A stretch of DNA of 64,000 nt, taken from positions 12,400,001 to 12,464,000 of the forward strand of contig OX597818.1 in assembly GCA_951406725.2 (NCBI GenBank), written 5' to 3'. Made by a program: the position numbers and the translations under genes. This document shows positions 2,861 through 9,508 of the stretch, piece by piece (positions within the stretch are counted from its first letter, which is position 1; every line of letters begins with the position of its first letter). The notes below the pieces were generated by a model that saw only the letters and a list, made by a program, of their open reading frames with translations, was not told the DNA's origin and made no database searches. Source of the DNA: Octopus vulgaris (lineage: Eukaryota).

Positions 2861-2919
2861 TTTTTTTTTTGTACTTGTTTCAGTCATTTGACTGCGGCCA
2901 TGCTGGAGCACCGCCTTTT

Positions 2920-3200
<281 letters not shown>

Positions 3201-8619: not shown

Positions 8620-8662
<43 letters not shown>

Positions 8663-8823
8663 ATATATATATATATGTATATATATGTATGTATATATGT
8701 ATATGTATATATATATATGTATATATACATATATAATATATATATGATATATATATATATATATACATATGTATATATTTATATATGTATATATATATAT
8801 ATATATAAGTTTATATATATATG

Positions 8824-8879
<56 letters not shown>

Positions 8880-8911
8880 TGAATGGAGTTGAACGAAGAT
8901 GTTAACAAAAT

Positions 8912-9007
8912 TCCTTTACTCTCGACATATGTTTCGAAGACAACATGGTTTCATTCCAAAGGAATAAATGGTGCAAGATGCAATCTTCTCATCAGGAAAG
9001 AAAAGGA
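8912..9007 (-). ncRNA. Type I hammerhead ribozyme, intact core (left arm)
   Basis: Mirror of 9193-9285: CUGAUGA...GAAA-cauaug-UC; predicted cut at 8924/8923. Confidence 0.88.
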
Positions 9008-9192
9008 GCCTCTCTCAACAACAAGACAAACAAAAATTGTTCCCTACCTATTATTCCTTTAACCCTTCTCTTCCTACTATCTAACTTTGACGTCAATTCT
9101 ACTAACGGTTTTTTAAAAACACTTATTATCGTTTTGTTTACCATGTAGGCAGTCATCGCAATTTTTGTTTGTCTTGTTGTTGAGAGAGGCTC

Positions 9193-9285
9193 CCTTTCTT
9201 TCCTGATGAGAAGATTGCATCTTGCACCGTTTATTTCTTTGGAATGAAACCATGTTGTCTTCGAAACATATGTCGAGAGTAAAGG
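9193..9285 (+). ncRNA. Type I hammerhead ribozyme, intact core (right arm)
   Basis: CUGAUGA 9203-9209; stem II gaaga/ucuuc, extended; GAAA 9263-9266; palindromic stem III ACAUAUGU; GUC 9272-9274; stem I ccuuucuuuc/gagag(u)aaagg. Confidence 0.9.
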
Positions 9286-9415
9286 AATTTTGTTAACATC
9301 TTCGTTCAACTCCATTCATTTATTTATTCATATATGACACACAAATTTCTGCACATGAACCCGGAGTTTTTACCCTTGGACAGGCTTCGGATCCAAACGC
9401 TTTGAAGGTTCCAAG

Positions 9416-9460
9416 TTATGTGAAGAACAAACGATAACACATCTGAAACAGCTGTAGTGA
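9416..9460 (+). ncRNA. Degenerate hammerhead-like remnant
   Basis: uuau-GUGAAGA...GAAA-cagcug-UA-guga; palindromic stem III retained, but C3 is mutated and stem II is decayed. Confidence 0.35.
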
Positions 9461-9508
9461 ACCTCCACCCATCTGTGTTGTTCTTTATGTATATATGTAC
9501 ATATATAC

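Follow-up and report, generated by a model that had tools for sequence, protein, structure and literature searches.

A palindrome with two hammerhead motifs in Octopus vulgaris and its very likely derivation from the 3' terminus of an autonomous Penelope-like element

Organisation of the palindromic locus

The window analysed here, a stretch of 64,000 nucleotides of the Octopus vulgaris genome (contig OX597818.1), contains an inverted repeat at positions 8863-9039 and 9159-9335 whose arms are 98% complementary. Between 8870 and 9328 the arms differ at three pairs of positions (8962/9236, 8969/9229 and 9004/9194), every one of them a transition, and a fourth mismatch (8869/9329) lies immediately beyond. 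An earlier note on this DNA had described 170-bp arms with three transitions, and the comparison of the arms bears this description out.

At the left end stands a (TA)n-rich microsatellite (8623..8869), the usual insertion site of the family. It is followed on the minus strand by an inverted, 5'-truncated 3' end of a Penelope-like element (PLE), comprising the last 170 nt of the element (8870..9039; reference positions 3010-3179). By comparison with the reference, this left arm ends in the terminus that lacks a tail (termed site A below), beyond which (TA)n begins, and it carries a type I hammerhead at 8913..9005 on the minus strand (core 8995-8924, predicted cut 8924/8923). The head-to-head junction, placed by alignment to the reference, is a 3-nt overlap, or microhomology, at 9037..9039. 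From here the 5'-truncated main copy runs along the plus strand to 9328, representing the final 292 nt of the element (3' UTR / pLTR) at 98% identity to positions 2888-3179 of the reference copy, L036, and including the right-arm type I hammerhead at 9193..9285 (plus strand; core 9203-9274, predicted cut 9274/9275). Nucleotides 1-56 of the family's 162-nt tail, which is 5' UTR sequence of the next unit, follow at 9329..9384 on the plus strand with the remainder absent, and other repeats (9382..9490, plus strand) abut the shortened tail. The loss of the tail beyond 9384 in the window copy is likely due to a subsequent deletion, whose ends meet at an AGG overlap of 3 nt.

Two of the limits drawn in the earlier note are altered by this arrangement. 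The palindrome at 8870..9328 stands, but its right limit is not that of the element, which continues to 9384; likewise, the 119-nt 'spacer' at 9040-9158 is present, but rather than being a separate spacer it is part of the PLE 3' end and is taken in by the main copy. The reported lack of an ORF in the palindrome holds, because the window copy consists of untranslated sequence only; at L041, the reading frame stops approximately 410 nt upstream of the 3' end. Contigs from four runs contained family pieces of many copies, with no listed piece spanning 9037-9039; these runs represent other samples with repeats collapsed, and have no bearing on expression either way. Elsewhere in the window, positions 35366-35419 match the family 3' end weakly (78% over 54 nt, mainly a simple TTTA repeat), and probably represent the end of some other element.

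Identity of the source element

A search of the 2.8-Gb genome with the palindrome yielded 2630 candidates, 40 of which were scored. Most of the scored matches span query positions 168-459 at 95-98%, and the supposed spacer and the right arm are therefore a single continuous piece. Other copies continue for kilobases upstream, and downstream into common sequence. L036, which served as the reference for the element positions given above, is full length. It begins with a partial pLTR, which is followed by the 162-nt tail, the remainder of the 5' UTR, an ORF in decay and the 3' pLTR. The pLTR arrangement by which endonuclease-positive (EN+) PLEs are recognised is found in partial tandems at L036, L162 and L163, and in tandem arrays at L156 and L164. 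The arrays at L156 (C1:119516000-119525900) and L164 are head-to-tail arrays of a sister family with open frames of 836-899 aa and identical hammerheads, and are likely recently active source loci.

The locus can be identified with high confidence, the priming model discussed below being left out of this assessment, as a 5'-truncated insertion of an autonomous PLE with an adjoining inverted and more truncated copy of the hammerhead-bearing 3' end. A PLE origin of the inverted termini had already been suspected in the earlier note, and is borne out by the fact that the same sequence ends ORF-bearing PLE copies. In itself the locus is ordinary; the shape of such a PLE stub has been described in previous papers.

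A genome search with an RT-region fragment gave 8334 candidates, of which 121 were scored, while a homolog search with the fragment gave 181 homologs, many with PF26215 and with an Argonauta homolog among them. Among the 121 scored of the 8334, sister families retain open frames of up to 934 aa (for instance, one of 899 aa). The copy that carries the sister-family ORF P0123 is 68% identical to P0002 across the RT region. When the P0123 model (101-row alignment; pLDDT 80.3, pTM 0.79) is compared with known structures, telomerase RTs occupy ranks 1-4 with a best E of 1.1e-9, as befits a single ORF with a telomerase-related RT. The family RT has DKT and YRDD motifs, with DKA in P0002, one decayed copy. 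A GIY-YIG-type motif (IYQC..YIG, R, E, N) aligns at the C terminus, and PF01541 occurs in 26-50% of the members of its Atlas neighbours. Pfam scans of family and homolog proteins returned no RT or GIY-YIG match, and PDB sequence searches, a profile search included, returned nothing relevant.

Several features recall the Hydra clade, for which PMC8557442 describes a change of DKG to DKT, the absence of CCHH, and CxxC and CxH around the E and N residues. In the octopus proteins, CCHH is absent from the nuclease core, and CxxC and CxH flank the conserved E and N; of the Hydra-clade motif RWK, the RW is kept and the K is not (RIRWL in P0123 and P0124). The CxCX5C linker before the nuclease is absent in P0001 and P0123 and present in 115 of 120 homologs listed. 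Among 15 frames, it is also absent from the 11 with a properly delimited linker; three further frames have no CxCX5C-like motif in the last 45 residues before the nuclease, and L153 was mis-delimited. In the ORFs of L148-L164 and at L041:1233-2795 (minus strand), the place of the CxCX5C linker zinc finger is taken by a disordered stretch rich in Asn and Ser, together with a conserved motif that lacks cysteine. Judged by these motifs, the family is an EN+ PLE of Hydra-like type, not filed as a member of the Hydra clade because the CxCX5C linker is absent.

The hammerhead ribozymes

The hammerhead core pattern has three matches in the window, at 9203-9274 (plus strand), at 8924-8995 (minus strand) and a third that belongs to another family, as compared to 0.05 expected from shuffles. 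The claim of a type I hammerhead on each arm is upheld by the presence of the core pattern on both and by the formation of stems I and II in the isolated unit, and the predicted cut positions agree with those proposed earlier (9274/9275 and 8924/8923). The stem III word, ACAUAUGU, is self-complementary, as had been claimed; among the hammerheads compared it changes to ACACGUGU, the stem remaining palindromic. The hammerhead went undetected in Rfam scans, even with a threshold of E<=10, likely owing to the long stem II.

Across 13 hammerheads from the family and its sister families, 92.7% of cells are paired, compared to 36-53% in slid controls, and 7 of 20 pairs have a double-sided change; as the 13 sequences share ancestry and the structure is that of the window copy, these counts are to be read as support and not as probabilities. 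By the measure of covariation, the hammerhead is real.

In a co-fold of two right-arm units, the dimeric hammerhead forms freely at -44.8 kcal/mol, as against -33.0 kcal/mol for two forced monomers and -37.4 kcal/mol for two free monomers, these and the folding figures below being equilibrium predictions. Together with the self-complementary word, this agrees with the dimer-type stem III proposed in the earlier note, and the hammerhead is likely to work as a dimer in tandem PLE transcripts, as far as folding can predict. For the PLE hammerheads described in PMC4209133, no activity was reported for monomers and low activity for dimers.

Other features were seen in the window and at further loci. 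The hammerhead is immediately preceded by a purine run (9183-9201) that is able to pair with stem I, on its 5' strand, and so competes with the ribozyme fold. The third core match, at 1398-1475 on the minus strand, is a type I hammerhead-like motif that belongs to another repeat family and has the palindromic stem III ACGAUCGU. That repeat has 2441 genome candidates, with a nearby opposite-strand second copy at 3 of 40 scored loci, and is probably another PLE family. More minimal hammerhead-like motifs of other families are present at L148:735 and 1295 (minus strand) and L154:5333 (minus strand).

Inverted copies across the genome

An exact 25-nt ribozyme word has 93 genome matches (0 for the reversed control) that correspond to 79 loci, the window locus included. 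All were examined, mostly with approximately 3.6 kb of upstream flank, and the sample favours young copies and two-hammerhead loci. A head-to-head second arm is present at 54 of the 79 loci: 22 have inverted pairs across both hammerheads, 23 have inverted pairs with one, and 9 have a tail-type second arm consisting of the tail only or of the tail and approximately 20 nt, leaving 25 single loci. The earlier note had made its case depend on whether other genomic copies are palindromic, and the window locus is clearly not a one-off in this respect. Both arms have the strict core at 14 of the 22 two-hammerhead loci.

The junctions and arm lengths of the double-arm loci are 45 distinct of 45. Arm length is continuous, reaching 2918 nt and extending into the ORF, with a median of 143 nt for the shorter and 207 nt for the longer arm. 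Because all 45 double-arm junctions differ, the palindrome is a frequent insertion product and not a replicating unit, and it likely arises anew at each insertion. The median arm divergence is 3.4% among the 33 pairs measured; at 1.8%, the window locus is the fourth lowest, in keeping with its description as a young palindrome.

Among shorter arms, none of 45 is 75-111 nt long, a length that would place the 5' end inside the stem II and loop of the hammerhead, while 24 of 45 are 112-174 nt long. This gap may reflect stalling of the RT near the ribozyme fold, although the sample is small and part of the gap would be a selection effect.

Termini, tails and junctions

The outer ends of the insertions fall at two sites 162 nt apart, of which site A is the pLTR end and site B is the tail end, with 53 of 64 site-B ends aligning to position 162. 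The tail, 162 nt long in the reference (L036:3760-3921) and similar in sister families, compares to PLE tails of 30-40 bp in PMC3846280 and PMC8557442. Of 65 site-A ends, 56 have a (TA)4 no more than 22 nt away, as do 54 of the 64 site-B ends, as compared to 4.8% of positions in the window background; thus, insertion into (TA)n, a feature of the Hydra clade, is seen at 110 of 129 ends.

Of the 45 pairs, 41 have the tail on one arm and not the other, 4 lack it altogether, and none has it on both arms. If the ends chose between A and B freely and equally, the chance of zero B-B pairs in 45 would be about 2 in a million (0.75 to the 45th power). The tail-bearing arm is the longer in 19 of the 41 pairs, the shorter in 20 and of equal length in 2. 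In at least two pairs (L133 and L135), site A is at both arm ends, and at L046 a short inverted piece stops before the 3' end in a fold-back-like manner.

With six pairs with gaps of more than 20 nt excluded, and with the proviso that BLAST overlaps may contain mismatches, junction overlaps of at least 4 nt occur at 12 of 39 near-flush junctions, as compared to 1.7% when simulated; only one of the 39 overlaps is palindromic. At 31 loci, the arms differ by 4.5% within an insertion and by 7.4% between insertions. The strictly nearest arm is the arm's own partner for 12 of 62 arms only, and a shared template is therefore indicated at the level of the subfamily, not of the individual molecule.

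No 5' boundary was found at the ribozyme cut site, with 2 of 45 shorter arms starting within 5 nt of it, and at the stem I edge there is a broad peak only, without a sharp boundary. Since 38 of 45 shorter arms extend beyond the cut site, the template would have been uncleaved.

Origin of the inverted insertions

Insertions of this shape were likely made when the PLE enzyme cut a (TA)n tract and used the two resulting DNA ends as primers for reverse transcription. The uncleaved RNA of a single source element would serve as template, with one DNA end priming at site A and its counterpart at site B; both cDNAs would terminate early, and the early-ended cDNAs would then be joined head to head, often via a few nucleotides of microhomology. 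The hammerhead in the window stub would be a passenger. We consider this coupled, two-ended priming at A and B, with subsequent microhomology joining, rather probable, as a mechanism read from genomic products only. PMC11167929 provides a precedent in that a PLE protein uses two RNA start sites, which bound the tail, when it extends the two target strands. However, the start site did not differ between the two strands in that study, whereas the A/B pairing in this family implies a difference, which counts against the two-ended model, as do the A-A pairs L133 and L135 and the fold-back-like copy L046.

Alternatively, the same PLE could give rise to inversions by self-priming, or fold-back, of an antisense or first-strand template, resulting in a hairpin whose two arms the endonuclease subsequently trims, one at A and one at B. 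Fold-back has been proposed for PLEs in the Discussion of PMC3846280, and PMC8557442 attributes the tail to endonuclease resolution; the junction microhomology and the likeness of the arms are equally well explained by such a mechanism, and L046 has the look of it. In plain fold-back, however, the longer arm is the template and must carry the tail, whether or not the shorter arm does so as well; instead, it is the shorter arm that has the tail in 20 of 41 pairs, and none of the 45 pairs has two tails. In addition, 9 loci have a second arm that is mostly or wholly tail sequence absent from the first arm, and the near absence of palindromic junction overlaps (1 of 39) is difficult to reconcile with fold-back. 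Only an extra, precise trimming step would save the model, and we regard fold-back as unlikely.

The earlier note had suggested a non-autonomous family of ribozyme retroelements whose transcripts choose between cleavage and a dsRNA hairpin, which would amount to a palindromic element or retrozyme that is propagated as a unit. The frequency of short palindromes and the presence of the strict core on both arms at 14 of 22 two-hammerhead loci would fit such an element, but PLE copies with an ORF end in this very sequence, all 45 inverted pairs differ in arm lengths, and the arms run continuously into the ORF. Moreover, retrozymes are by definition tandem arrays, as set out in bioRxiv 10.64898/2026.07.22.740005, whereas the window has two inverted copies only, and the predicted pairing of the hammerhead stems is 0.00 in the full palindrome (MFE approximately -300 kcal/mol). 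The proposal is largely refuted by the diversity of the junctions, and is very improbable. An assembly artefact or one-off rearrangement might be suggested by the microsatellite-rich surroundings and by the lack of a listed public contig crossing the junction, albeit in other samples with repeats collapsed; yet the three arm differences are unlike a mirrored read, and the same shape, termini and one-sided tail recur at 54 of 79 loci on many contigs, such that we give this reading hardly any credence. Likewise, two near-perfect inverted arms flanking a short middle recall a MITE, a DNA transposon that would have a hammerhead in its terminal inverted repeats by chance. Here, the middle continues the element sequence without a break, the arms can be of any length, a second arm is lacking at 25 of 79 loci, and an RT is encoded by the long copies. 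A MITE or any fixed palindromic element is expected to have a shared length and a single junction and is refuted by the 45 distinct junctions, leaving the MITE with a negligible probability.

Coupled two-ended priming may also be formulated more broadly, for PLE insertion in general. In this formulation, the tail end of the RNA is invariably the priming site of one target end and the pLTR end that of the other, the two sites being 162 nt apart in this family, the inversions are twin first-strand cDNAs and not fold-backs, and (TA)n targeting has been kept in this lineage despite the loss of the linker zinc finger; we advance it tentatively, its chances being a little short of even. The linker zinc finger was previously proposed to confer (TA)n targeting, and the persistence of (TA)n targeting after its loss argues against the motif being needed. 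No proposal of coupled two-site twin priming for PLE inversions was found in the open literature searched. The mechanism of tandem and inverted PLE insertion is called undefined in PMC8557442, and the family represents a clean natural data set in which the long 162-nt tail makes both termini easy to score, and for which young sister copies with intact ORFs exist.

Hairpin versus cleavage in a read-through RNA

A choice between self-cleavage and hairpin formation had been envisaged for transcripts of the palindrome. When both arms are in one RNA, the predicted structure is a hairpin of approximately -300 kcal/mol, in which the pairing probability of the hammerhead stems is 0.00. For transcripts starting in the middle part, the hammerhead stems have probabilities of 0.01-0.05 until the start is within approximately 45 nt of the core. 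Because the antisense arm is transcribed first on either strand, a real choice is unlikely; no switch is expected, and the hammerhead of a read-through RNA is predicted to be buried in the 170-bp hairpin. The viroid-like ambisense layout suggested in the earlier note arises incidentally when one end is duplicated as an inverted copy. Formation of dsRNA is plausible should the locus be read through, and PLE stubs, if transcribed, would feed perfect hairpins to host dsRNA pathways.

Comparison with known systems

An inverted pLTR with a one-sided tail is typical of endonuclease-positive PLE insertions, as described in PMC3846280 and PMC8557442. The insertion units of those reports (including the legend to Fig. 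2 of PMC8557442) resemble the present family in having an inverted 5'-truncated copy by the 5' end, in head-to-head orientation, as well as a tail at one end only, microsatellite targets and an Asn-rich ORF insert. The tail is 162 nt here and 30-40 bp in the described units, and a target-site duplication is unreadable within (TA)n in the octopus insertions. Dual hammerheads approximately 100-700 bp apart on opposite strands were linked to truncated PLEs by Cervera and de la Pena in 2014 (PMC4209133). The hammerheads of that report share with those described here the type I core, G10.1-C11.1, a long helix II, a palindromic helix III and dimer dependence, whereas helix II is 11 bp here with a loop of approximately 31 nt, and positions 9 and 10.1 are not separated by an extra base.

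Relative to the C-terminal-endonuclease PLEs of the Hydra clade (PMC8557442), the family is alike in its DKT and RW motifs, the lack of CCHH, the CxxC/CxH flanks, a canonical hammerhead and (TA)n targets, and unlike in lacking the CxCX5C linker, in having RWL for RWK, and in a unit of 3.2-3.6 kb as opposed to <3 kb. Hydra-1_Obim in the supplement to PMC8557442, compared by its description, is 2507 bp. The non-LTR retrozymes of bioRxiv 10.64898/2026.07.22.740005 similarly have a type I hammerhead from a PLE pLTR in a copy without an ORF, but the octopus locus has neither a tandem array nor fixed-unit propagation. In the case of PAc, the Poseidon of Anolis (PMC11167929), the likeness extends to two defined 3' termini that bound the tail, AT-rich targets and the copying of hammerhead-uncut RNA. 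The PAc start sites did not differ by strand, however, and the PAc hammerhead overlaps the ORF start with the tail in the ORF, whereas in the octopus family both lie upstream of the ATG.
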